Assembly (NCBI RefSeq): GCF_004010195.1
Contig: NC_057718.1
Location: forward strand, 103,881,954 to 103,945,953
Direction of reading: 5' to 3'
From: Chiloscyllium plagiosum
Lineage: Eukaryota
Length of the DNA: 64,000 bases
Shown here: piece after piece, positions 1,790-64,000 of the stretch
How positions within the stretch are numbered: the first letter of the stretch is position 1
Layout: each line of letters begins with the position of its first letter
Made by a program: the position numbers and the translations under genes
The notes under the pieces: model-generated
Seen by the model: the letters and a program-made list of their open reading frames with translations, nothing else
What the model was told of the DNA's origin: nothing
Database searches by the model: none

Positions 1790-1982
1790 AAGCTGCCCAT
1801 TTGGAACATTTGACCATTGGCTTCTGGTCTTACATCTGCCATGCTAGCCCAGATACACACCAGTGTGGATGGCTCTTAACCACCCTCGGAAATGACAAGC
1901 CTCTCAGTTCAAGGGCAGTTAGGGATGGACAATAAATGTTGTCCTTGCCAGTGACACTAACAGCCCACAATAAAGAATGAGG
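1790..1982 (+). mobile_element. SINE-B (LINE-B-related SINE), degraded 3' part
   Basis: ctcttaac..cctc..aaatg..caagcctctcagtt joined to caagggcagttagggatggacaataaatg; homologous to 45800-46143. Confidence 0.7.
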
Positions 1983-3699: not shown

Positions 3700-4110
3700 A
3701 TACAATCAAAGCTTGCCACTTGATTGGCACCACACCCACAAACGTTTACTCCCTCCACTCCTGAAGCTCAGTCACAGCTGTGTGTACTATCGACAAGATG
3801 CTCTGTAGAAATTCACCAGACAGCACCTTCCAGACCCATAACCACATCCATCTAGAAGGACAAGGGCAGCAGGTCCATGGGAACACTACCTGATGAACAT
3901 TCCCCTCTAAACCACTCACCATCCTGATTTAGAAATATATTGTCATTCTTTCAGTGTCACTGGGTCAAAATGCTGGAACTCCCTCCGTAACAACAGTATG
4001 GGTCTACCCACATGGTCCACAACGGTTCAAGAAGGCAGCTCATCCCCATCTTCTCGAGGGGAACTAGGGACAGGCAATGAAGGCTGGCCTAGCCAGGGAT
4101 ATCATTTCCC
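3700..4110 (+). mobile_element. LINE-B 3' end
   Basis: ccatctagaaggacaagggcagca...gggaactagggacaggcaat; homologous to 33145-33553. Confidence 0.85.
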
Positions 4111-4340
4111 AATCAAACTAGTCTGTGCTAGTGTTTATACTCCACTCGAATCTCATTCCATTCCAGCTCCATCGTCTCAGTTTTCCAGCCTATCATTCTT
4201 TCCCCTTTTCTCTCACGTACCCATCTAATGCCCTTTTGAAAGTAACAAAACTATGTGTCTGAATGACTTCCTGTAGTAGCAACTTTCACATTCTAAGCAT
4301 TGTCTGAGTAAAGAAATGTCTCCATGTTTCTCTATTAGAC

Positions 4341-5340: not shown

Positions 5341-8193
5341 AGTCATAGAGTCATAGAGATGTACAGCATGGAAACAGACCCTTCGGTCCAACCCGTCCAT
5401 GCTGACCAGATATCACAACCCAATCTAGTCCCAGCTGCTAGCACCCGGCCCATATCCCTACAAACCCTTCCTATTTATATACCCATCTAAATGCCTGATG
5501 GCAATTGTACCAGCCTCCACCACATCCTCTGGCAGCTCATTCCATACACGTACCACCCTCTGCATGAAAAAGTTGCCCCTTAGTTCTCTTTTATATCTTT
5601 CCTCTCTCACCCTAAACCTATGCCCTCTAGTTCTGGACTCCCTGACTTTGTCTATTTATCCTATCCAGGCCCCTCATAATTTTGTAAACCTCTATAAGGT
5701 CACCCCTCAGCCTCCGACGCTTCAGAGAAAACAGCCCCAGCCTGTTCAGCCTCTCCCTACAGCTCAGATCCTCCAACCCTGGCAACATCCTTGTAAATCT
5801 TTTCTNNNNNNNNNNNNNNNNNNNNNNNNNNNNNNNNNNNNNNNNNNNNNNNNNNNNNNNNNNNNNNNNNNNNNNNNNNNNNNNNNNNNNNNNNNNNNNN
5901 NNNNNNNNNNNNNNNNNNNNNNNNNNNNNNNNNNNNNNNNNNNNNNNNNNNNNNNNNNNNNNNNNNNNNNNNNNNNNNNNNNNNNNNNNNNNNNNNNNNN
6001 NNNNNNNNNNNNNNNNNNNNNNNNNNNNNNNNNNNNNNNNNNNNNNNNNNNNGGTCAAGATCCTGTTGTAATCTGAGGTAACCCTGTTCACTGTACTACA
6101 CCTCCAATTTTGGTGTCTTCTGCAAACTTACTAACTGTACCTCTTATGCTCGCATCCAAATCATTTATGGAAATGACAAAAAGTAGAGGGCCCAGCACCG
6201 ATCCTTGTGGCACTCCACTGGTCACAGGCTTCCAAGTCTGAAAAATAACCCTCCACCACCACCTTCTGTCTTCTACCTTTGAGCCAGTTCTGTATCCAAA
6301 TGCCTAGTTCTCCCTGTATTCCATGAGATCTAACCTTGCTAATCAGTCTCCCATGGGGAACCTTTGAATGCCTTACTGAAGTCCATATAGATCACATCTA
6401 CTGCTCTGCCCTCATCAATCCTCTTTGTTACTTCTTCAAAAAACTCAATCAAGTTTGTGAGACATGATTTCCCAAGCACAAAGCCATGTTGACTATCCCG
6501 AATCAGTCCTTGCCTTTCCAAATACGTGTACATCCTGTCCCTCAGGATTCCTTCCAACAACTTGCCCACCACCGAGGTCAGGCTCACCGGTCTATAGTTC
6601 CCTGGCTTGTCTTTACCGCCCTTCTTAAACAGTGGCACCACGTTTGCCAACCTCCAGTCTTTCGGCACCTTACCTGTAACTATCAATGATATAAATATCT
6701 CAGCAAGAGGCCCAGCAATTATTTCTCTAGCTTCCCACAGAGTTCTCGGGTACACCTGATCAGGTCCTGGGGATTTATCCACTTTTAACCTTTCCAAGAC
6801 ATCCAGCACTTCCTCCTCTGTAATCTGGACATTTTGCAAGATGTCACCATCTATTTCCCTACAGTCTATATCTTCCATATCCTTTTCCACAGTAAATACT
6901 GATGCAAAATATTCATTTAGTATCTCCCCCATTTTCTGTGGCTCCACACAAAGGCCGCCTTGCTGATCTTTGAGGGGCCCTATTCTCTCCCTAGTTACCC
7001 TTTTGTCCTTAATATATTTGTAAAAACCCTTTGGATTCTCCTTAATTGCATTTGCCAACGCTATCCCATGTCCCTGTTTTGCCCTCCTGATTTCCATCTT
7101 AAGTATACTCCTACTTCCTTTATACTCTTCACTCGATCTATCCTGTCTATACCTGACATCTGCTTCCTTCTTTTTCTTAACCAAACTTTTTCTTTAGTCA
7201 TCCAGCATTCCCTATACCTACCAGCCTTCTCTTTCACCCTGACAGGGGATATACTTTCTCTGGATTCTTGGTATCTCATTTCTGAAGGCTTCCCATTTTC
7301 CAGCTGTCCCTTTACCTGCGAACATCTGCCTCCAATCAGCTTTCGAAAGTTCTTGCCTAATACTGTCAAAATTGGCTTTTCTCCAATTTAGAACTTCAAC
7401 TTTTAGATCTGGTCTATCCTTTTCCATCACTATTTTAATCTAATAGAATTATGGTTGCTGGCCCCAAAGTGCTCCCGTACTGACACCTCAGTCACCTGCC
7501 CTGCCTTATTTCCGAAGAGTCGGTCAGGTTTTGCACCTTCTCTAGTAAGTACATCCACATACTGAATCAGAAAATTGTACACACTTAAGAAATTCCTCTC
7601 CATCTAACCCTTTAACACTATGGCAGTCCCAGTCGATGTTTGAAAAGTTAAAATCCCCTACCATAACTACCCTAATATTCTTACAGATAGCTGAGATCTC
7701 CTTACAAGTTTGTCTCTCAATTTCCCTCTGACTATTAGGGGGTCTATAATACAATCCCAATAAGGTGATCATCCCTTTCTTATTTCCCAGTTCCACCCAA
7801 ATAACTTCCCTGGATGTATTTACAGGAATATCCTCCCTCAGCACAGCTGTAATGCTATCCCTTATCAAAAATGCCACTCCCCCTCCTCTCTTGCCTCCCT
7901 TTCTATCCTTCCTGTAGCATTTGTACCCTGGAACATTAAGCTGCCAGTCCTGCCCATCCCCGAGCCACATTTCTGTAATTGCTATGAGATCCCAGTCCNN
8001 NNNNNNNNNNNNNNNNNNNCCCCCCCCCCTTACTAGTTTAAATCCTCCCAAGCAGTTCTAGCAAATTTCCCAGCCAGTATATTAGTCCCCTTCCAATTTA
8101 GATGCAATCCGTCCTTCTTGTACAGGTCACTTCCACCCCAAAAGAGATTCCAATGATCCAAAAATGTGAATCCTTCTCCCATCCACCAGCTCC
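5341..8193 (-). mobile_element. Long CR1 LINE: ORF1 esterase C-terminus, ORF2 APE endonuclease and RT, 3' tail; frameshifted, with gaps
   Basis: ORF 7542..8051 (DLIAITEMW, YYRPPNS, VGDFNF = APE); ORF 6339..7184 (KSPGPD, NYRPVSLTS, QHGF, DVIYMDFSKAF = RT); 8035-8193 translates FLDHWNLFWGGSDLYKKDGLHLNWKG (SGNH-type DxxH); (CTATGACT)n tail. Confidence 0.95.
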
Positions 8194-10204: not shown

Positions 10205-10768
10205 TCAATGTGGACATTATGGTGTGCAGTTTTGGTCTCCTGACCTGAGGAAGGATGCTCTGGCTGTGAAGGAAGTGCAACAAATTTGTGTACCAAACTG
10301 ATTGCGAGAATGCCAAGACAGAGGCATGAAACAAGATTGGTTTGGTTAAGATTATATTAGTTTGAATTTAAAAGAATGAAGGGTGATCTTATCAAAACCT
10401 ATCCCATTCCAACAGGACTGGACAGGGTAAACATAGGAAGGATGTTCCCAATGACCAAGGGGAGTCCAGAACCAGGGATCACAGTCTAAGGATACTGGGC
10501 AGGCCATTTAGAACTGGGGTAGAGAGAAATCTCTTCACCCAGAGAGTGGGGAACTGTGGAATTCTCTGCAGTAGAAAGTGGATGAGGGCAAAACATTAAA
10601 TGTTCTTAAGAAAGAGTTGGATGTATGTCTTGTGGCTAAAGGGATCAAATGATATGCGGAAAAAATAGGAACAGGGGACTGAGTGGGATAGTCAGCCATG
10701 ATCATATCGAATGGTGGAGCGGACTCGAAGGATTGAATGGCTTACTCCTGCTCCCCTTTTCTGTGTTT
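10205..10768 (+). mobile_element. CR1 LINE 3' end (preceded by an HE1 SINE tail at 10060-10148)
   Basis: gtgcagttttggtctcc, ttcacccagagagtggg, gaatggcttactcctgctcc. Confidence 0.85.
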
Positions 10769-10769
10769 C

Positions 10770-11312
10770 ACAGGGGCTCCTGGCACTTTCCCCTGCCACC
10801 GCAGGAACTGTAAAACCTGTGCCCACACCTCCTCCCTCACCTCTATCCAAGGCCCTAAAGGAGCCTTCCACATCCATCAAAGTTTTACCTGCACATCCAC
10901 TAATATCATTTATTGTATCCGTTGCTCCCGATATGGTGTCCTCTACATTGGGGAGACTGGACGCCGCCAAGCAGAGCGCTTTAGGGAACATCTCCGGGAT
11001 ACCCGCACCAATCAACCACACCGCCCCGTGGCCCAACATTTCAACGCCCCCTCCCACTCTGCCGAGGACATGGAAGTCCTGGGCCTCCTTCACCGCCNNN
11101 NNNNNNNNTACTCTATGCTACTTTCTCCCCACCCCCACCCTCCTCTAGCTTATCTCTCCACGCTCCAGGCTCACTGCCTTTATTCCTGATGATGGCCTTT
11201 TGCCCGAAACGTCGATTTCAATGCTCCTTGGATGCTGCCTGAACTGCTGTGCTCTTCCAGCACCACTAATCCAGAATCTGGTTTCCAGCATCTGCAGTCA
11301 TTGTTTTTACCT
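10770..11312 (+). mobile_element. Penelope-like element 3' part with GIY-YIG endonuclease
   Basis: ORF 10737..11189: FPCHRRNCKTC...NIIYCIRCSRYGVLYIGETGRRQAERFREH...VAQHFN; followed by a terminal region with a hammerhead motif at ~11182-11217. Confidence 0.92.
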
Positions 11313-14924: not shown

Positions 14925-16925
14925 TTCTAGGTGGCTGACCAGGGAAGGCAGGAACAGCATAAAAGGAAAGAACATCGAATATGGTGAAGATCAGTGGGAA
15001 GCCAGGGGACTGGGAAACCTTAAAAAATAAGCAGAGGGGATAACTAAAAAGGCAATAAGTGGGGAGAAGATGAAATGTGAGGAGTAAGCTAACTAGTAAT
15101 ATTAAAGAAGATTGCAAGAATTCGTCAGATATATGAAAGGTAAGAGAGGGGCAAAAATGGACGTTGAATTTCTGGAAAATGAAGCTAGGAATGTAGAAAT
15201 GGGAAACATGGAAACAGCAGAGGAACTGAATAGATATTTTGCATTAGTTTTCACAGCAGAAGATACTGGCAGCAAACCAGAGTCAAGGGATAGAGGTGAG
15301 TGTAACAGCCATCACTAAGGAGAAGGTGCTGGGGAAGTTGAAAGATCTGAAGGTGGATAAATCTCCCAGACCAGATGGACTGCAGCCCAGAGTTCTGAAG
15401 GAGGTAGCTGAGGAGATTGTAGAGACATTGGCAGTGATCTTTCAGGAATCACTGGAGTCAGGCAGGATCCTGGAGGATTGGAAAATGGTGAATAACACAC
15501 CCCTGTTAAGAAGGGAAGGAGGCAAAAGACAGGAAATTATAGGCCAGTTAGCCTGACCTTGGTCGTTAGTAAGATTTTAGAGTCGGTTATTGAGAATGAG
15601 ATTGCAGAGTACTTGGAAGGGCATGATAAAATAAGGTGGGGTCAACACAGCTTTGTCAAGGAGGGGTCATGCCTGACAGATCAGTTTGAATTATTTGAGG
15701 AGGTAATGAGCAAGTTAGATAAAGGAGAGCCAGTGGATGTGATCTGCTTGGAATTCCAGAGGGCCTTTGACAAGGTGCTGCAACAGGAGGCTGCTCAATA
15801 AGGTAAGAGCCATAGAATTAAAAGCAAGGTCCTGGCCTGAATAGAGGCTTGGCTGACTGGCAGAAGGCAGAGATTGGGAATAATGGGGTCTTTTACAGGA
15901 TGGCAGCCAGTGACTAGTGGTGTTCCACAGGGGTCTGTGTTGGGACCACAATTATTCACGTTATACATTAACAATCTGGGTGAAGGAACTGAGAGACATT
16001 GCTGCTACATTTGCAGATGACACTAGGATAGGTGGAGGGATGGGTGGTGTGGGGGAAGCGGGGAGGCTTCAGAAGAACTTGGACAGGTTAGGAGAGTGGG
16101 CAAAGAAGTGGCAGATAGAATACAATGTGGGAAAGTGTGGGGTTATGCACTTTGGTCAGAAGAATTGAGATGTTAACTACTTTCTAAATGGAGAGAAGCT
16201 TTGGAATCTGAAACGCAAAAGGACTTAGGAGTCCGAGTTCAGAATTCTTTTATGGTTAACATTCTAGTTCAGTTGGCAATTGGGAAGTCTAAAGCAATGT
16301 TAGCATTCATTTCAAGAGTGCTAGAATACAAGATTAGTGATGTACTACTGAGACTGCACAAGACTGTGATCAGACTGTGTTTGGAATATTGTGACCAGCC
16401 TTAGACCCCGTACCTAAGGAAGGATGTGCTAGTATTGAAGGGGTTCCAGAGGAGATTTGACAAGGATGATCATGGACATGAACAGCTATTACTTGAGGAG
16501 TGATTAAAGACTCTGGATCTGTCCTTGATGGAGTTTAGAAGGATTAGGTAGGAGCTGATTGAAACTTACAGAACAGTTTTTTGTGGGGTAGAGCGGATGT
16601 GGAGAAAATGTTTCCAAGAGAAGGAGAGCCTAGGACCCAAGGTAACAGCCTCAGAATGAAGGGACGACTCTTTAAAACACACTTGAAGAGGAATTTCTTC
16701 AGCCAGAGGGTGGTGAATCTATGGAACCTATTGTTGTAGAGGGCTGTAGAGGCCAAATCAGTGAGTGCATTTAAGACTGAGATATATAACTTCTTGCTTA
16801 GTAAGGGGATCAAGGGTTATGGAGAGAAGGCAGGAAAATGGGGTTGAGAAACATATCAGCCATGATCGAATAGTGGAGCAGACTTGATGGGCCGACCAGT
16901 CTAATTCTGCTCCATATCTTATGGT
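14925..16925 (+). mobile_element. CR1 LINE ORF2 (RT) to 3' end, ~2 kb, decayed
   Basis: [52 protein letters not shown]. Confidence 0.93.
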
Positions 16926-20849: not shown

Positions 20850-20955
20850 ATACAGAAACAGAAATTGCTGGAAAAGCTCAGCAGGTCTGGCAGCATCTGC
20901 AGAGAGAAATCAGAGTTAACATTTCAGGTCAAGTGATCCTTCCTCAGAACTGAGG
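20850..20955 (-). mobile_element. PLE terminal fragment with hammerhead-like motif
   Basis: Reverse complement agtt-CTGAGGA-aggatcacttgacct-GAAA-tgtt-aact. Confidence 0.8.
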
Positions 20956-22324: not shown

Positions 22325-23165
22325 GGCTGCTGGAGATCTGAAACAAACACAAACAGAAATTGCTGGAGAAACTCGGCAGGTCTGGCAGCATGTGTGGACA
22401 GCGAAACAGAGTTACCGTTTCAAGTCCAGTCGCCCTTCTTCAGAACAGGAGACAGAGAGAACTGAGGGTTCTCTTCCAGCAGCAGAAAAGGTTACTGTGA
22501 AATTTGACAATGTTTAAAATCATGAAGGATTTTGGTAGAGTGAACAAGGAGTAAAAGTTTCCATCAGCAGAATGACTGGTAACCCAAGGCCTCACGAATG
22601 TAACTAGCGAAAGAGCCGGCAGGGGTTTGAAGAGAAAGTCAATGAAGTGAATTGATATGATCCAGAACTCACAGCCTGATTGGCTGTGGAAAGTAGAGTC
22701 AACAGTAAGATTCAAAAGGCAATGGATAAAAACCTTGAATTGGATACGTTTACAGTCATACAGGGAAAGAACAGGTGAGTGGGAATTATCAGATAGCTGT
22801 ACTGAAGAGCCTGTATGGGTGCGGTGGGCTGAAGAGCCTGGTTTTCTGCTGTAAGACACTATGATTCTTTGATTTTAATGCAATCCCTAGGTTTAGTGTA
22901 CTCTGTCACTTGTGATTCATAGTCTATTATCGAGAAGTCTCTGTGCAGCAAAGGGACAGAACTCACCATTTCACCCAGAGGGTGGTGAGGGTCTGGAATG
23001 TCTGGGTGGGGAGTTGAGGCTGGAAATCTCACAACCTTTAAAAAGGACTTGGATGAGCAGGTGAAGTGACGTAGTATTCAAGGCTAGGGACCAAGTGCTG
23101 GAAAGTGGCACAAACGTAGATTTAGGGTAGTTTTGTCGGGACAGGCTGTATGGTTCTATGATCTT
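22325..23165. mobile_element. PLE terminal fragment (22325-22450, minus) followed by two old CR1 3' ends (plus)
   Basis: gctggagaaactcggcaggtctggcagcat; CR1 tail motifs gggctgaagagcctggttttctgctgtaa. Confidence 0.7.
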
Positions 23166-23915
23166 TTTTATTCTCCTATGGGATGTGTATGTCACTGACT
23201 GAGCCAGTGTTTATTGCCCATCCCCAGTTGCCCTTGAGAAGGTGGGGTGAGTTGCCTTCTTACACTGCCACAGTCTGGGTGCTTTAGGTTGACTCACATT
23301 GCCCTTAGGGAGGGAATTCTAGGATTTTGACCTAGTGACGTTGATGGAATGGTAATATAATTCCAAAGTCAGGATGGTGAGTATTTTGAAGGGAACTGCT
23401 GCCCTTGTCCTTCTGGATGCAAGTGGTCATGGGTTTGGAAGGTGCTGCCTACTGAGCCTTGGTGAATTTCAGCATCTTTTTAAAAAATCCCTACAGTGTG
23501 GAAACAGGCCATTTGGCCCATTAAGTCCACACCAACCCTCCAAAGAGTACCCCAGCCAGACCCATTCCCCTACCCTCTTACTCTACATTTACCCCTGACT
23601 AATGCACCTAACCTACACATCTCTGAACACTATGGGCAATTTAGCATGGTCAATTCGCCTAACCCACCCATTTTTGGACCATGGAAAGAAACCGTAGTAC
23701 CCAGAGAAAACCCACACAGACACAGGGAGAACGTGCAAACTCCACACAGACAGTCGCCCGAGGCTTGAATCAAACATGAGTCCCTGGTGCTGTGAGGCAG
23801 CAGTGTTAACCACTGAGCCACCAAGCCATCGAGCCACCCCATCTTGTCGGTGGTACACATTGCTGCTACTGAACATCGGTGGAGGAGGGAGTGGATGCAT
23901 GTGGATCTGGTACCA
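23165..23915 (-). mobile_element. LINE-B 3' end interrupted by an HE1 SINE
   Basis: tttattgcccatccccagttgcccttgagaaggtgg; homologous to 33145-33553. Confidence 0.85.
23480..23840 (-). mobile_element. HE1-type V-SINE, full length
   Basis: gcaaactccacacagacagtcgcccgaggc...gctgtgaggcagcagtgttaaccactgagccacc. Confidence 0.92.
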
Positions 23916-24974
23916 GTCAAAGATCCATAACTATGAGATTCAATTCAGTGCAAAAACCATGAACAAAGCCATTTAATGAAAATGTGAGCAAAATGAAAGT
24001 CGTTAAAAGCTATTAATTTACGTAAGAACTCCTTTCACTTAGATTCCCGAAGGGTAGTATAATTAAGAAATTGGAAGTCTAAATAAAGTAAGAATCCATT
24101 GTGATGCAAATGTCTGAAACGTGAAAACGATGGACCACAACAATTAAAAAAAATCTTCTATTTTCTGCACCTTATGATTAACAAATTGAAGATTATGTAA
24201 AAATTTACCTGTTTTGGGAATGTGAGATTCCTGAATTTACAGCAAACTGAATGATGTAAAACAATCCCAATGTACCAAGCTGTTCCTTTTTAAAATAACA
24301 ATTATATTGCAACACTCCATTCTTAAATTTCTTCCCACAGCAGGAAGATTAGTGGACAGACGTGATCTATGCCCTCCTTCAACAGAAGCATAAACTCCTT
24401 TATTATAACTGCTGGAGGAATACCATACAGGTGTTAAGTGTTTGCACATTAGAATCACAGCACCCTGGTTTATTTGTCCCAGACTTGGGAATATACAGGT
24501 GTTATAAGAGTGAAGCAGCACAGCATGGAATGGAGTGTTATTACATTTTGGAGTTTTGCATGTGAGCCACACATGTGCTTAATAATAATTGGTTGTCACA
24601 GGTATGATTTAGGGTCCTACAGCACAAAGAATTCACTTATTCATGAAACTTTCTCGAAGGTTGTCCCAGCAGCAACTCCTCACTGTGAAGTATTTTAAGT
24701 AGTTAAAGTGAAATTGGATTTTGTTTTGATGTATAATAGGACGTCTGCATTAAATCCATTTGGTAAAGTTAGAAACATTGAGCACTTTTCACAATCCCAG
24801 GAGACTTCAGTTACAAAAATCATAGCGGCTGGTGACGAGTGATAAACCTTCAAATTTGTACTGCCTGTATAATAACTTAATGGAATTATGGTTAAATATC
24901 TGAAACATTACCATTTCCACAAGTGAGCTATCCATTGGAGGGTTAGAAAGGCAAAAAGAAATCTTTGAACACAC

Positions 24975-30177: not shown

Positions 30178-31394
30178 CTCTCCTTGGTAGCCCCATTCAA
30201 CAACCTATACCTGCAAGCTGCATGGTGGTTCATTTATCTGGAGAGAAGGAGGTGGAGTGAGAATGTAGTGCAGGTTTTAGGGGTTTGGATAGAGGCTGGA
30301 ATACTTTCCTTATTCTGGTGAATTTCTTGCAAGTAGCAGATACAGAAACTTACATTCCTTTTGTTTGCCAGTGTGATCTCGGTCTTCTGTCTCAGAGAAG
30401 CTGAGTGAAATTTGTTTCCAAAATCTATGTCAGTTCCCAACATCGAGTCTGGAGGGGCATGATTAACCTGAGGCTTTGTAACAATTTGCTTCCATTTCAA
30501 GCACTGGAAACCAATGCAGTGCCTTGGAAACAGGACAGACACTTAGAATATTCTCTTTTTTAAAAAAAACTCTACCCCCAGCTCATCTAACGTGATGACT
30601 TCTGACAATTACAATGTCAAACTCTGCGGGTGTGTATAGCACCCTATCAAACTGAAAAATGCCTCTCTTTGACATTGAAGGTTGAGGTTTTTGACAGCTT
30701 ATCTCATGTGAGTGGGTGGAGGCAATGAACTCCACTCATATAAACACAAATCAGACTAATTAGCTAATTAAAGCCTAATTAAACCCAAGCGAATGCAATT
30801 GATGGAACAGCACTCCTCTGAATACTCAAGGTGATTTCTAGGAATCACTGAAATTAACGTATTAAGACAAGGGGTGTGCTGTGTGGCACAGAGGGGAAAA
30901 TGTCCTCTGTCTGTTATTTGTACCTTTGTTCCAAATGTATCCTTTATAAGCAGAGAAAATAATTTGTAGTGTTTAATTGCAGCTCTTTGTAACACAGCAG
31001 AGGGTTTGTGTCACACCAGTGGCAATTAAGGACCGATTCCTGCTGTAGATTAACATTTGGAATCTTAAGCACATATCCTTCCTCCCCTTGTGTAGTTTCT
31101 GTCCTTAGTTCATTTACATCTTGAAATCACAGGCAATAAGACACAAAAGAGAGATTGCTGAATGATCTCCAGCACTAGAACAATCACACAGACATGACCT
31201 CCTCTCAGGTTGGGTAATAATCCTATTAAATATTCAGAATGGGCTTGATCCAGTGTAATTATTATTGCTGTAATTGTCCTTCTAACCAAAGTAGGGGAAC
31301 TGATTAATTATGAGTGTTATTTATTGTTTCAAATGAAAACTGAAGGTGCTGGAGAAACTCAGCAGGTCTGGTAGCATCTGTGGAGAGGGAAACA

Positions 31395-33553
31395 GGGAAG
31401 ACAACGACCCATTGGTATTATTCTCAGACTATTAATCCAGAAACTCAGCTAATTTCTGGGGATTCAAATGACGGCAGATGGTGGAGTTTGAATTCAATAA
31501 AACCTATGTACTGATGAAAACATTGTCGATTGTCAGAAAAACCCCACCTGGTTCACTAATGTCCTTAAGGGAAGGCTATCTGCTGTTTTTACCTGGTATG
31601 GCCTATACAGATTCCAGACCCGCAGCGATGTGGGTGACTCTCAACTGCCCTCTGAAGTGGTCATGCAAGCCACTCAATTGTATCAACAAAGTCTCAACAA
31701 AGAAGTGAAAGCAGACGGACAATCTGGTAATGTCTTCAGCATCGGCAAAAGCAGCCCCGTTGACCCTGCAAACTCCTCCTGACTAACACCCGGGGGTTAG
31801 TGCCAAAACGGAGAGGGCTGTCTCACAGGTGGGTCCAGCAGCACCCTGAGAGAGTCCTACTCACAGAATCATCGTCAGCTTAATGGAATCAATCAGACCA
31901 TACCCCAGACACCACCACAGCCACCATCCCACTGGCAGCACAGTGGGACACAATCAGGAGGGAGTTGCCCTGGGAGCCCTCAACATTGACTCTGCGCCTC
32001 ATGAAGTCTCATGGTTTCAGCTAAACATGGGCAAGGAAACCTCCTACTGATTGCCACGTACCATCCTCCCTCGGCTGATGAATCAGTACTGCTCCATGTA
32101 GGTTGCTAGGACATAAAATGTCCTCTGGGTGGGGGATTTCAATGTCCACCACCAAGAGTGGCTAGGCAGCAGTGCTACTGATTGAGCTGATCAGGACTAC
32201 ATTGGGTCTGCAGCAGGTGGTGAGGGAACGAACACAGAGGAAACACATACCTGATCTCATCCTTACCAATTCCCCCAGCTGCAGATGTATCTGTCCATGA
32301 CGGTATCTGTAAGCGTGATCACCGTACAGTCCTTGTGGAGACCAAGTCCCACCTTCACATTGAGAATAACCCCCATCGTGCTGTGTGACATTTCACCATG
32401 CTAGATGGGACAGACTTCAAGCAGATCTAGCAACTCAAGATTGGGCATCCATGAGGCACTGTGGGCCATTAACAGCAGCAGAACTGTACTCCAGCACAAT
32501 CTGCAACCTCATGGCCCAGCATATCCCCCACTCAACCATTACCATCAAGCCAGGGGATCAATCCTGGTTCAATGGAGGGCATGCCAGGAGCAGCAGTGGG
32601 TATACCCTGAAGATGAGATGTCCACCTGGTGAAGCCACGAAACAGGACTGCTTACATGGCAAACAGCATAAGCAGTAAGTGATAGACAGAGCTCAGCCAT
32701 CCCACAACCAGCGGATCAGATCTAAGTTCTGCAGTCCTGCCACATCTAATGTAGACAATTAAACAACTCACTGGAGGAGGGTTCTCCACAAATATCCCCA
32801 TCCTCAGTGATGGAAGATCCCTGCCTGTCAGTGCAAAAGATAAAGCTGAAGCTTTCGCAGCAATCTTCAGCCAGAAGTGCCGAGTGGATGATCCATCTCG
32901 GGCTCCTCCAGTGATACCAAGAAACGATTGGAGATACTGGATACCACAAAGGCTATGGGTCCTGACAATATTCTGACAATAGTACTGAAGACTTGTACAC
33001 TGGAACTTGCAGCTCCCCTAGCCAAGCTCTTCCACTACAGTTACAACACTCGCATCTACCTGACAATGCGAAAAATTACCCAGGTACATCCTGTACACAA
33101 AAAGCAGAACAAAGCCAACCCAGCCAATCACTGGCCCAACAATCTATTGATTGGCACCACATCCACAAGCATCCACTCCCTCCACCACCCACGCTCAGTA
33201 GCAGCAATGTGTACTATCTACAAGATGCACTACAGAAAGTCACCAAAGATCAGACAGCACCTTCCAAACCTATGACCACTTCCATCTAGAAGGACAAGGG
33301 CAGCAGATACATGGGAACACCACCCTCCTGCAAGTTTCCCTTCAAACCACTCACCATCCTGACTTGGAAATACATTGCCATTTCTTTACTGTCGCTGGGT
33401 CAAAATCCTGGAAGTCCCTCCCTAAGGGCATTGTGGGTCCACCTACAGCACATGGATTGCACGGGTCAAGAAGGCAGCTCACCCCGACCTTCTCATGGGA
33501 CAGGCAATAGGTGCTGTCCATAGCGGCACCCATGCCCCTTGAATGCATGAAAA
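31395..33553 (+). mobile_element. LINE-B: tRNA/SINE-like 5' leader, APE endonuclease, RT N-terminus (RT core deleted near 33145), 3' end
   Basis: LTNTRGLVPK..VLLTES; WVGDFNVHHQEWLG; RDHRTV; KAMGPDNILTIVLKTCTLELAAPLAKLF; the 5' 290 bp match SINE-B. Confidence 0.9.
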
Positions 33554-33554
33554 A

Positions 33555-34015
33555 TGTTAATATTTCGAATCCAGTGATCCTTCCTCAGACAGATGCAGTG
33601 AGATGTTGCTGAGTTTCTCCAGCATTTTCCATGTTTGGTGCTGAGCTCTGCAGTATTTTGTGTTTAGGGGGATCTGATCAGTGTTGTCTCTGTTTCTTTT
33701 CTTTTCTGAGGAGAGAGGCGCCACTAACCTTTGCCTTTGATATATCCAAAATACAACATGCACTTAATCTGCTATTTTACAACAAATACCCTGGCAACAT
33801 GGCCTGAGATATTCAAAAAATAATCTTGAAAACCAAATAATACAATAATCCAAAGAACTGCGGATGCTGGGGATCTGAAAGATAAAAAGTAAATGCTGGA
33901 GAAACTCAGCAGGTCTGGCAGTCTCTGTGGAGAGAGAGAGAGAAACAGAGTTAATGTTTTGAGTCCCATCACCCTTGTTCAGAACCTGCTGAATTTTTCC
34001 AGCACTTGCAGTTCT
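33555..34015. mobile_element. Two PLE terminal fragments (33555-33665, 33850-34015)
   Basis: gctgagtttctccagcatttt and aagaactgcggatgctgg...gagaaactcagcaggtctggca. Confidence 0.75.
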
Positions 34016-34136
34016 TTGATTTAATTATTAATACAATTTTATTGTTGATTCTTAAGCTGTCTGTTTCTGATCCATGAGGCAAATGCGGCTCTGTTTGTGT
34101 ATTTTCTATTGATGAGTAGAAGTGATTGGTCTTATC

Positions 34137-35724: not shown

Positions 35725-36975
35725 TGTTCATTCATGGGAGGTTTCCATCCCTAATTAACCTTAAGAAGGTGGTGGTGAGCTGCCTTCTTGAACTGCTGCA
35801 GTATTTGCCATGTCATTACCCCGACAATGCCCTCAGGGAGTGAATTCCAAGACATTGACCGATTGACATTGAAGGAACGGCGATATACTTCTAAGTCAGG
35901 AATGTGAGTGGCTTGGAGGGAGAATTTGCAGGGGATGGTGTTCCCATGTACCTACTGCCCCTGTCCTTCTAGATGGAAGAGGTCATGGGTTTAGAAGGTG
36001 CTGTCGAAGGATCCTTGGTAAATGTTTGTAGCACTTCTCATAGTGCACACTGCTGCTACTGAGCGCTGATGGTGATGGTGATGGTGAATTATTTGATATA
36101 GAATTCCCATCCTTTGATTTGCTGTTATAGCCACTGTGTTTATACGGTTGGTCCTGTATAGTTTCATAGTCAGTACTAATGCTCCAGGATGTTGGTAGTG
36201 GGGTATTCAGTGCTGGTAACACCATTGAATGTCAAGGGGCTGTGATTAGATTTGTCTTTGTTGGAGATAGCCATTGCCTGGCACTTATGTGGTGAGAATG
36301 TTATTTGCCACATGTCAGTGCCAGTCTGGATATTATCCAAGTCCTGCTCCATTGGGACCATTCTGCTTCAGTATCTGAGGGAAACAAGCAGGAGGCTGAA
36401 AGAATACAGCAAGTCAGGCAGCATTAGAGGGTGGAGAAGTCAACGTTTTGGTTGTAGCCCTTCTTCAGGACTGAACATCGTGCAATCATCAGCGAACATC
36501 CTCGCTTCTGACCTCCTGATGGAGGGAAGGTCATTAATGAAGCAGTTGGTTGGGCCTAGGTACAATCCTGAGGAACTCCTGCAGAGATGTCCTGGAGCTG
36601 AGAGACTGACTTTGTACATCCAATGCCATCTCCCCATGTGCCAGGTAAGTTCCCTGATACCCATTGATTCCATTCAAGATTAGATTGGTGCTGGAAAAGC
36701 ACAATAGGTCAGGCAGCATCAGAGGAGCAGGAAAATCGACGTTTCGGGCAATTCCTGATGAAGGGCTTTTGCCCGAAACGTCAATTTTCCTGGTCCTCGG
36801 ATGCTGCCTGAACTACTGTGCTTTTCCAGCACCACTCTAATATTGACTCTAATCTCCAGGCATCGGCAGTACCCACTTCTGCCTACCATTGATTCCCGTT
36901 TTGCTAGGGTTCTTCAATGCCACACTCAGTCAAATGTGGCCTTGATGTCAAGGACTCTCACTTTCATCTCACTTC
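35725..36975 (-). mobile_element. LINE-B RT/3' region containing two PLE inserts (36381-36472, 36672-36885)
   Basis: CFINDLPSIRRSEARMFADDCT; QDLDNIQT..WQITFSPHKCQAM; TSD ccattgattcc at 36661-36671 and 36886-36896. Confidence 0.88.
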
Positions 36976-41000: not shown

Positions 41001-41182
41001 TAATTGTTGAAAATTGAAACTTTGGCACAGATTCAGTGAACCAAATTGGCAAAGGTACCCTGGAGAATGAGTTCACCGAGTGTATTTGAGGCAATTTCTT
41101 AATACAACCGATTATAAAACCTACCTAGGAACAGACTATTTTAGACCTGACAATGTGTAATGACATGATGAATATATCACCT

Positions 41183-42060
41183 GGATTGCACCCCTTCCCA
41201 CCCTACCTCCTGCAAAAATGCCATCCCGTATTCCCAATTCCTCCGCCTCCACTGTATCTGCTCCCAGGAGGACCAGTTCAACCACAGAACACACCCGATG
41301 GCCTCCTTCTTTAGAGACCGCAATTTCCCTTCCCACATGGTTGAAGATGCCCTCCAACGCTTCTCATCCACATCCTGCACCTCCGCCCTCAAACCCCACC
41401 CCTCAAACCATAACAAGGACAGAACTCCCGGTCCTCACCTTCCACCCTACCAACCTTCGCATAAACCACATCATCCGCCGACATTTCCGTCACCTCCAAA
41501 CAGATCCCACCACCAGGGATATATTTCCCACAGCACCCCTTTCCGCCTTCCGCAAAGACCGTTCCCTCCGTGACTACCTAGTTAGGTCCACGCCCCCCCA
41601 ACAACCCACCCTCCCGTCCTGGCACCTTCCCCTGCCACCACAGGAATTGCAAAACCTGTGCCCACACTCATCTTCCGCCTCGGAACACTTCAACCCCGGG
41701 GCATCAATGTGGATTTCACCAGTTTCCTCATTTCCCCTCCCCCCAGTTCCAAACTTCCAGCTCGGCACCATCCCCATGAGTTGTCCTACCTGCCTATCTT
41801 CCTTCCCACCTATCCACTCCACCCTCCTCTCTGACCTATCACCTCCATCACACCCCCATTCACCTATTGTACATTTTGCTGCCTTCTCCCCAGCCCCACC
41901 CCCATTTATCTCTCCACCCTGGAGGCTCACTGATGAAGGACTTTTGCCTGAAACGTCGATTTTCCTGCTCCTCGGAGGCTGCCTGACCTGCTGTGCTTTT
42001 CCAGCACCACTCTGATCTCTACTCTGGTTTCCAGCATCTGCAGTCCTCACTTTTTCTGAG
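41183..42060 (+). mobile_element. Penelope-like element with RT C-terminus, GIY-YIG internally deleted, 16-bp TSD
   Basis: KNAIPYSQFLRLHCICS, VLTFHPTNLRINHII, AFRKDRSLRDYLVRS; TSD gatgaatatatcacct at 41167-41182 and 42061-42076. Confidence 0.92.
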
Positions 42061-45799: not shown

Positions 45800-46143
45800 T
45801 TTTTTTTTTCTATTCATTCATGGGATGTGGCTGTCTCTGGCTAGACCAGCATTTATTGCCCCATCCCTATTAAGAGTCAAGCACATTGCTGTGGGTCTGG
45901 AGTCACATGAAGACCAGACCAGGTAAGCTGGCAGTTTCCTTCCCTAAAGGGATTTAGTGAACTACTTGGGTTTTTCCTGACAATTGATTCATGGTCATCA
46001 TTAGACTTTTAATTCCATATTTTTAAAATTGAATTCAAATTCCACAATCTGCCATACTGAGATTCAAACCCAGGTCCCCAGAACATGTCCTGGGTCTCTG
46101 GATCAACAGCCCAGTGATAATACCATGAGGCCATTGCCTCCCC
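45800..46143 (-). mobile_element. SINE-B, full length
   Basis: Reverse complement: A box tggcctcatggt, B box gggtttgaatctc, body matching the LINE-B leader, tail gggatggggcaataaatgctgg..cccatgaatgaat followed by an A run. Confidence 0.88.
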
Positions 46144-54185: not shown

Positions 54186-55287
54186 GTGTATCCCAGGATG
54201 TTGTGGGAAGTTAGGGTAGAAAATATGGGGCACCGAGGGGGCAAGGATTGATTCTGAATAGTCAATATGATTTTGTGTGACAGAAATCATGTCTTACAAA
54301 CTTGATTGAGTTTTTTGAAGAAATAACCAAAAAGATTGATGAGGGCAGAGCAGTAAACGTTGTTTATTTGGACTTTAGTAAAGCCTTTGATAAGATTCCA
54401 CATGGTAGACTAATTAATAAACCTAGCTCACATGGGATTCAGGGAGAGCTAGCCAATTGGATACAGAATTGGCTTGACAGTAGGAGACAGAGGGTGGTGG
54501 GAGAGGGTTGCTTTTCGGACTGGAGACCTGTGACCTGCAGTGTTCCACAGGGATCAATGTTGGGTCCAGTTTTGTTTGTCATTTATATAAATGATTTGGA
54601 TGAAACTATAGGAGGCATGGTTAGTATGTTTGTGGGTGACACCAAAATTAGTGGGATAGTGGACAGTGAAGAAGGTGATCTAAGATTACAAAGAGATCTT
54701 GATCAATTGGGTCAATGGATTGGGGAGTGGCGGAAGGAGTTTAATTTGCATAAATGTGAGATGTTGCATTTTAGTAAACAACCAAAGATAGGACTTATAC
54801 AGGTAATGGTAGGACCCTGGGTTGTGGAGTAGAACAGAGAGTGGTTCAGGTACATAATTCTTTGAAATTTGTGTTACAGGTAGACAGGTTAAGAAGGTAT
54901 TTATAGAAGTTTATAAGGTCATAAAGGGTGTAGATAAGGTGAATAGCAAGTGTCTTTTCCTACGGTCAGAGGGTTCAAAATTAGGGGCTCCATTTTTAAG
55001 GTGAGAGGGGAAAGATTTTAAAAAGACACGAAGTGCAACTTTTTAACATAGAGAGTAATTTGTGTTTGGAATGTGCTGCCAGAGGAAGTGGTAGATATAG
55101 GTACAGTCACAATATTTAAAAGAGATTTGGATAAGTATATGAATAAAAAGGGTTTAGAGGGATATGGGCCAAGTGGGTGTGGTTTAGTTTGGGAAATGGG
55201 GTTGGCATGAACTAGTTGGAGCAAAGGGTCTGTTTCCGTGCTTGATGCCTCGATACCTCTCTTCCTGAATAGGTGCTCGAAGCCGAG

Positions 55288-59489: not shown

Positions 59490-59590
59490 CTTTTGCGGAA
59501 GGGTCACTCGATCCGAAACATTAATTCTGATTATTCTCTGCAGATGCTGCCAGACCTGCTGAGCTTTTCCAGCATCTTCTGTTTTTGTTT
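59490..59590 (+). mobile_element. PLE terminal fragment
   Basis: gggtcactcgatccgaaacattaattctg...gatgctgccagacctgctgagcttttccagca. Confidence 0.8.
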
Positions 59591-60439
59591 CAATCATCCT
59601 GCACTGTGTGAATATTATTAATCAGCCCCACCTTTCCACTTTGTAGATATTATCCCCTGAATAGTCTAAAACCTGATAACAAATCTGGCCATTGGGTTTA
59701 ACTCATCCAAATTGACATCCTGCATAGCGTTAAGTCCTTGTTTAAATCCCTGTTGTGTGTTCCCTACACTGCTTCTCATCTCATTATGCCCCATTAAACA
59801 AGAGCACCCTGAATTTTCATGGAGTCTCTATTTTCCTGGGTCTTTCGCAGTTAGCTCCTATTTAGATGTGTTTCAAAATACGTGACACACAATTTATTTA
59901 TTGATACCTTGCATCAATGTCAACCAAATATGATGTTGGGTTATGGGGTCATTAGGATGCGATGGATGGCTGTGAATATATGTCAAATAGATGGTCCATT
60001 TTGTTTTCCTGTAAAGGTTTTAGGTTCTTCAGACTTTAAGAAGTGAGGTGAGGGGTTATTGGGAGAGGAATTCCAGAATTTCCGGACAAGACAGCTGATG
60101 GACCAGCCCCCAATGACTGAGTGATTAAAACTGGGGATAACACCAGAAACCCTCTCAAGAAAGTGTTAAATGATGGCACATATTAAGAGTCCATCGCCCC
60201 AATCATTGGGAAGAGACAAACATGCTCTTGTCAGCTTTTACGACGATGATTGCACATCTTAATTGTGACAATGAATATGGAAAGAAGCAGATGTTGAACA
60301 GCAAAATATTACAGAGTGTCTCTGATTCATCTGTGCTAACATCATGAATCGCTTACTGGACTAATGATCCAATGAAAATGGTTCAAATCTTATCACGGCA
60401 GTTGAAGAATGTGAGTTAAATGAAATAAATGTGGAATAA

Positions 60440-61540
60440 GACGCTTGTCAGCGATGGTGCTGTGAAACCCATATCCTTTAGAGAAGAGAATCTGCCATCC
60501 TGTTATCCTGGGCCCACAGCTTTGGGGTGACTTCTTAACCACATGGTTGTTTCAGAACACAACACGTGCACTGGGACGAGACAGTGTTTCACCATCACCT
60601 TCTGAGGTCACTTAGGGATGGCCAATAACTGATGGCTTCACCAGTGAGGCCTACATCCTGTAGTTGGATGAAACAAATGGGTGAACTTACTCCAAGAGGT
60701 CTTTTGTTGCAGGATAACAGCGAAGATATTCTTATTCAGAGCATTGATATTCCCTTACTTATTTCACTCATGAGACATGGACATCACTGGCTGGGCCCAG
60801 CATTTATTGCCCGTCCCTAGTTGCCCCTTGAGAAGGTGGACGTGAGCTGCCTTCTTGAACCGCTGCCATCCGTGGACTGTAGGTAGACCCACAATGCCGT
60901 TAGGGAGGAATTCCAGGATTTTGAACCTATGGCACTGAAGGAACAGCAATACATTTCCAAGTCAGGATGGTGGATGGATTTGGAGAGGAACTTGAAGGGG
61001 GTGGTTTTCTTTAAAATCTTCAAACAGTGCCCTTTGGTTCCTCACCCATTCACAAGCAGGAACAGTTTCTTCCTTATCACTTTGGTCAGACCCTTCATGA
61101 TTTTGGAAACTTCTCCAAGGAAAACACTCCCAATTTTTCCAATTTTTCCTCATAGCCGAGTTCCTGATCCCTGGATCCATTCTCCTAAAGCTCTCTCTTC
61201 ATTAGCCTCACATTCTTTCAAGAAGGTTGAGGCCAGAAGTGGATGCAATACTCCAGCTGGGGTCTAACTAGTATCTTCTACAAATGCCACATGACCTCCT
61301 TGCTCCTGCACTCTACGCCACCATTAATAAAGCCTAGAATATTGGATGATTTGTTAACGGCTCTGCCACTTTTAATGATGTATGTACATATAGAACCAGG
61401 TCTCTCTGCTCCTTTCGAATTGTGCCCTTCATTTTTATACTCATTGTCTATGTTCACCTCACACTTCCTACATTAAACTTCATCTGCCCACCTATGTGCC
61501 CACTCCACCAACTTCTCAAAATCCTTTTGAAGTTTTGGGT
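60440..61540. mobile_element. SINE-B remnant (60440-60680, plus), LINE-B 3' end (60760-61010, minus), old CR1 (61010-61540, minus)
   Basis: Homology to other copies in this window. Confidence 0.75.
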
Positions 61541-63575: not shown

Positions 63576-63864
63576 TGATATACCTGAAACCCAAATAAAA
63601 GTTCCTACAAAGACATCAACTACCTCAGGGTGTGTTTATTCACTGTGTTGCTGAAGCTGCTGCGTAAGATTTGCAGGTTGGACATCTAAACCCTGGCCCC
63701 CTCACAACTAGAACCACAATGTAATTTGAATTTTCCCGGGTTTTAGACTCCAGAGGTTAGTTGTTGAGGGTCCTTTCAGTATGGGAACTAGATCTGAGTA
63801 TCGTGAAGCAGTGAATCCGATAACTGGCCCACCGCCCCATCCGGTACTAACGCCAAATTGGTTT

Positions 63865-63970
63865 GTTTATTCGTTCATGGGGTGTAGGAGCACTGGCTAG
63901 ACCAACATTTATTGTCCATCCCAAAGTCCCAGTTAAGAGTCAACCACATTGCTGCCGGTCTGGAGTCACA
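63865..63970 (-). mobile_element. SINE-B 3' part
   Basis: catttattgtccatccc..agttaagagtcaaccacattgctgccggtctggagtcacatg. Confidence 0.8.
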
Positions 63971-64000
63971 TGGACTAATCACGTGGACAATAAATGCAAA

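Follow-up and report, generated by a model that had tools for sequence, protein, structure and literature searches.

Results

A decayed LINE with a tRNA-like head

Positions 31395-33553 of the window (the whole 64,000-nt stretch of Chiloscyllium plagiosum DNA analysed here) hold a dead, internally deleted LINE copy of 2.16 kb. Read along the plus strand, it begins with a tRNA-like head (31395-31485), delimited by alignment to a SINE and by box matching, which comprises an A box, an anticodon arm, a long extra arm and a B box, the boxes being decayed in this copy. The head is followed by a leader body common to the LINE and the SINE (31486-31678, placed by sequence comparison) and by a leader segment found only in the LINE (31679-31772), which reaches the endonuclease. 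The coding region consists of an APE endonuclease remnant with stops and frameshifts (31773-32360), the linker and the start of the reverse transcriptase (RT) domain (32370-33149, 62-76% identical to a Heptranchias protein fragment) and the C-terminal part of the single ORF (33171-33491). A 3′ tail with a stem-loop and a short A run (33492-33554), again common to LINE and SINE, closes the element. At 33149-33171 an internal deletion of about 320 codons has taken out the RT catalytic core, and the alignment to a 940-aa relative breaks off at residue 514 and resumes at residue 835 (about 320 aa absent).

The first-pass annotation had described an APE endonuclease that left no room for an ORF1, and this held: the first endonuclease strand lies at 31773, with 378 nt of the element ahead of it. 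Its description of a single-ORF LINE stood in part, as the copy is collinear with 935-975-aa single-ORF APE-RT proteins but lacks the RT core. Pfam Exo_endo_phos matches in the copy were weak and below the curated cut-offs. The RT core of the family was located at 36954-36400 on the minus strand, within a 5′-truncated copy (35735-36954, minus strand) that keeps the FADD motif and carries foreign inserts. Further 3′ fragments of the same LINE lie at 3715-4120 (plus strand), 60763-61009 (minus) and 23164-23924 (minus), the last of them split by another SINE.

No in-frame ATG precedes the endonuclease in the copy at 31395-33553. A short upstream frame (31628-31708) opens within the shared leader and ends shortly beyond the junction with the LINE-only leader, and a search for proteins reading from a leader ATG into the endonuclease found none (weak evidence). 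The A run at the LINE 3′ end has 5 A and that on the SINE 9-10 A; covariation in the 3′ tail is slight, with two-sided change in 2 of 12 pairs. A possible target-site duplication of 7-8 nt, A-rich, was seen at the SINE, and none was clear at the LINE.

The LINE interrupts a host repeat whose inverted arms lie at 31342-31364 and 33607-33629, with the left half of the repeat at 31330-31394 and the right half at 33555-33630. When the two flanks were rejoined, 8 of 20 matches in the window spanned the join, 5 of them cleanly at 75-81% identity. Because the flanks rejoin into a host repeat that is intact elsewhere, the head, body and tail are a single interruption. This short inverted-arm repeat, here at 31342-33629, is abundant and also occurs at 22344-22460, 20856-20948, 33882-34022 and 59494-59596.

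The SINE consists of the two ends of the LINE

The start of the LINE had been noted to align with the full SINE at 45803-46143 (minus strand), and this was confirmed: 31395-31644 matches 46143-45869 with 186 of 248 aligned bases identical. The alignment score of 251.5 compares with a mean of 68 and a maximum of 93 in 300 shuffles, and BLASTN gave E=3e-27. The A- and B-box-like motifs, scored against box patterns, are present in the SINE with 1 and 2 mismatches, but those of the LINE copy itself are decayed (A box with 3 mismatches, B box broken by two small deletions). The first 95 nt of the SINE gave a weak full-length alignment to the Rfam tRNA model (14.3 bits, E=4.3; cut-off 29) in which the anticodon arm, a 21-nt extra arm and the T arm could be followed. 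Rfam found neither a tRNA nor a ribozyme in the head of the LINE copy at 31395 and no tRNA in the 15 tested of 80 related LINE loci; ARAGORN found nothing at default settings, and its output at relaxed settings was noise.

A Deu domain, as expected if the SINE were SacSINE1, gave no motif match at ≤3 mismatches in the window and was not seen by eye against the alignment printed in the supplement of PMC7245038. The UCON3 and Meta domains likewise showed no match by eye to the leader body. With a body that is none of these three domains, the SINE is distinct from SacSINE1.

Beyond the shared head and leader, the SINE copies pass directly to the LINE tail and hold LINE 5′ and 3′ sequence only. 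The junction reported at about 1900-1930 is present, in a 5′-truncated SINE at 1810-1980 (plus strand) with its break at 1909/1910, and its LINE counterpart was found at 31666-31687. This longer junction form joins near 31678 and reaches into the last four codons of the LINE ORF. The full SINE at 45.8 kb has a shorter form, joined earlier, near 31644, and the 5′-truncated SINE at 63860-63972 (minus strand) also has the shorter form. The shorter junctions are derivable from the longer SINE, and the several forms may be later deletions of one SINE. The SINE end does correspond to the LINE tail (40 of 56 bases identical to the tail of the copy at 31395), but the tail text quoted in the first-pass annotation came from other copies; against four LINE tails in the window, the SINE tail is 71-80% identical.

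The leader-LINE junction recurs

A junction confined to this locus would have pointed to a chance neighbour, but it recurs in many contigs and in the 5′ ends of all seven published elasmobranch consensus sequences described below. In public runs, the LINE leader was found on loose ends behind 31686 in 92 contigs (X4) and 62 contigs (X12), under two species labels. The SINE tail was found on loose ends behind 31676 in 69, 65 and 14 contigs, and the shorter SINE junction behind 31654 in 60, 21 and 9 contigs. Among the matches listed, 9 of 32 pieces bridge the junction with at least 31 letters on each side and 9-18 differences, and one further listed piece is probably the orthologous locus. The contig evidence covers the leader-LINE junction; evidence for the head comes from this locus and from the published consensus sequences.

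The junction motif had 0 matches in viral contigs, and protein scans of viral contigs yielded no loci. Metagenome contigs gave 4 matches, none with an adjoining LINE protein. An animal-like metagenome contig carries a 39-nt, 82% match around the motif (L003, 1091-1129), which is probably due to chance because the motif itself selected the contig.

The LINE belongs to the elasmobranch CR1-Zenon family

On sequence, the LINE at 31395-33553 is a member of the elasmobranch CR1-Zenon family (Stuart et al. 2026, PMC13343379). The supplement of that paper covers five elasmobranch species with seven Zenon consensus sequences, of which six measure 3.1-3.3 kb. Matches were judged from motifs and by eye within their first 400 nt. 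Within this span, the head and the passage through the junction are found in 7/7 elasmobranch consensus sequences, and the head is found in 0/3 of the non-elasmobranch ones (2 hagfish, 1 coelacanth). By eye against the box patterns, the A box is present in 7/7 and the B box in 6/7 elasmobranch consensus sequences, and across the five species the LINE consensus sequences keep both boxes near-perfect. A 15-mer from the leader occurs in 6 rows of the supplement, all elasmobranch Zenon, and a 12-mer from the junction occurs 5 times. In the one consensus that could be read that far, no in-frame AUG was seen by eye before the endonuclease. The Zenon consensus sequences have an ATG after the stop of the upstream frame; in the one where its reading frame was followed by eye, this ATG is not in frame with the endonuclease.

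The same paper describes Zenon as having a poly-A and no ORF1, states that elasmobranch Zenons had previously not been deposited in a repeat database, and scores hundreds to over 2,000 elasmobranch Zenon copies per genome (its Table 3). Its main text contains no use of 'tRNA', 'promoter', 'polymerase III' or 'Pol III', and 'SINE' appears there in one reference title only. The family is therefore already catalogued, with its tRNA-type head unremarked in that main text. Our literature search found no report of a tRNA head on this LINE; Repbase, Dfam, closed-access papers and some supplements could hold one.

Named proteins close to that of the LINE come from Heptranchias and Heterodontus, which points to a shark as host, and Branchiostoma, a moth and Penaeus supply the named distant relatives. 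Distant full-length relatives have ORFs of 940-990 aa, several on contigs of 3.3-4.0 kb. In a quick tree of the linker and RT start (63 rows, no labelled Zenon reference), five shark rows joined a Branchiostoma group (95), and this group fell inside a set with lepidopteran and Penaeus proteins (89), with the window's CR1 apart on a long branch. One relative, L006 (67-2799), has a Zenon-type ORF that groups with the Penaeus protein, carries one T4 run and has its 5′ end beyond the contig; it may be a second tRNA-headed lineage. Separately, of 191 candidate stretches from GTDB species genomes (L005-L084), 102 encode relatives of an animal LINE protein, which suggests that host DNA was binned into bacterial MAGs.

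Other elements in the window include a different tRNA-type SINE at 23470-23835, inserted in the Zenon 3′ fragment there, which we take to resemble V-SINE HE1, and frames at 10702-11189 and 41164-42015 that presumably resemble Penelope-like RT and GIY-YIG remnants. Canonical CR1 LINE remnants lie at 6058-8057, 15248-16400 and 54248-54832 and served as a control in the analysis of T runs.

T runs are depleted on the LINE sense strand

Four or more consecutive T act as a terminator for RNA polymerase III (Pol III). The 2,419 non-redundant bases of the LINE family's sense strand contain no TTTT, where 3.7 occurrences would be expected (P=0.025), and the other strand of the same bases has 8 T4 runs. 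Counting overlapping 3′ ends as well gives 0 in 3,801 (P=0.002); we prefer the non-redundant figure. TTT runs on the sense strand are halved (8 observed, 17.6 expected), and runs of the other bases are near expectation (A 13/19.6, C 16/17.5, G 10/5.9). Phenylalanine codons TTT:TTC stand at 1:6 in the LINE versus 28:6 in the window's CR1, which has 28 T4 runs in 5,062 nt. In 75 of 80 related invertebrate-type loci (L047, L048, L056, L063 and L064 left out), no LINE stretch lacked T4, with a median of 6.2 per kb and a median observed/expected ratio of 1.09. By eye, in the first 400 nt, TTTT is present in 0/7 elasmobranch Zenon 5′ ends versus 3/3 of those from hagfish and coelacanth. The LINE sense strand is itself T-poor (21%), and the equally T-poor relative L006 has 1 T4 run in 2,733 nt. 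A single T5 stands in the leader of the LINE copy at 31395, where other copies have T-poor sequence. As a sign of Pol III transcription the deficit is modest, suggestive and not decisive. Taken with the boxes, the sequences make it likely that the active ancestors of the Zenon copies were transcribed by Pol III from the tRNA-like head.

Discussion

These comparisons show that the order of head, leader and ORF is a trait of the family, that the unit was inserted as one piece and that the SINE is made of the two ends of the LINE. The interpretation we favour, to which we give about an even chance, is that the locus is a decayed elasmobranch Zenon copy of a family whose tRNA-like head likely drove Pol III transcription, and whose SINEs likely arose by loss of the coding middle. 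The head is missing from the hagfish and coelacanth Zenons and would therefore have been gained in the elasmobranch line, probably once, in the ancestor of sharks and rays. TFIIIC and TFIIIB would bring Pol III to the first G of the head; from there the polymerase would read through about 3.3 kb that selection had cleared of terminators. The uncapped LINE RNA would then be translated, and its protein would bind the 3′ stem-loop and insert the RNA by target-primed reverse transcription. A deletion retaining head and tail would yield a ready-made SINE in one step. The first-pass annotation had offered a choice between a LINE with its own tRNA-derived promoter and a deletion-derived SINE, or a captured head; this pair is supported, and its two halves are not mutually exclusive, with the head gained in elasmobranchs and the SINEs holding only LINE ends.

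The same exact fit of SINE and LINE ends is accounted for equally well by the reverse order of events, in which a deletion form of Zenon gained a tRNA head to become the SINE and a template switch within the shared leader later passed the SINE's head to the LINE. That order agrees with the model put forward for two-ended LINE derivatives, which are proposed to acquire small-RNA heads (PMC5786205), and Zenon does make two-ended derivatives (PMC6740152). It needs, however, an extra step and a headless elasmobranch Zenon, none of which is among the seven consensus sequences, and we consider it unlikely. Because the other Zenons have no head, the simplest order is that the elasmobranch LINE gained a head and deletion followed. 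A chance insertion of a SINE beside or within the LINE at this locus would suit the far greater abundance of SINE-type sequence, with depth dropping about 13-fold past 31676; it is refuted by the recurrence of the junction, the single empty site and the published consensus sequences, and we regard it as extremely improbable.

A further possibility accepts the head as a family trait but assigns LINE transcription to RNA polymerase II (Pol II), through initiation in the leader or read-through; the boxes would then serve only the SINE, or work as an enhancer or a structural RNA element, and base composition would explain why T runs are lacking. Its protein must be made, which favours a capped RNA, the sense strand is T-poor, L006 is similarly low in T runs, and Kojima considered LINEs and their two-ended forms very likely to be Pol II products (PMC5786205). 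Set against this are the near-perfect A and B boxes in LINE consensus sequences of five species and the halving of TTT runs while A, C and G runs stay near expectation, and we judge Pol II transcription to be unlikely.

The favoured Pol III interpretation can be extended to an autonomous coding LINE that Pol III transcribes over its full length and that sharks and rays have retained; its uncapped RNA would be translated without an in-frame AUG, and a one-step deletion would convert the LINE into SINEs. We put this forward tentatively, as a proposal drawn from sequence comparison that falls somewhat short of an even chance. In the textbook division, coding LINEs are transcribed by Pol II and non-coding SINEs by Pol III, whose RNA is uncapped. 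If the proposal is true, a LINE with a conserved tRNA promoter and without terminators breaks that split, provides a natural example of a long translated Pol III RNA and gives a one-step origin for SINEs and their bodies. The reading of the LINE as a Pol III unit is directly testable with a reporter and with existing shark assemblies.

Comparison with known systems

The SINE at 45.8 kb has the traits of tRNA-derived SINEs, namely a tRNA-related head with A and B boxes and a tail from a partner LINE. The LINE is like the published elasmobranch CR1-Zenon in its 5′ sequence, junction, length of about 3.3 kb, lack of an ORF1, APE and RT domains and perhaps A tail, and the window copy differs in being 2.16 kb long without the RT core (PMC13343379). 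SacSINE1 and other Deu-domain shark SINEs (Luchetti et al. 2017, PMC5499810) also combine a tRNA head with a LINE-derived tail; SacSINE1, however, has a Deu domain and a reported tail donor, L2-2_CM, whereas the shark SINE described here has no Deu domain (PMC5499810, PMC7245038). In SINEs that stem from two-ended RTE and Vingi LINEs (Kojima 2018, PMC5786205), body and tail come from one LINE, as here, but the tRNA head was added to the SINE only. The Persaeus SIDE of Lepidoptera (Wang et al. 2019, PMC6740152) is a short element that joins the 5′ end of a 3.3-kb Zenon LINE to its 3′ end, just as the shark SINE is made of the two ends of its LINE. Persaeus is described as having no tRNA homology or Pol III promoter, whereas in the shark family the LINE and its short form both carry the head.
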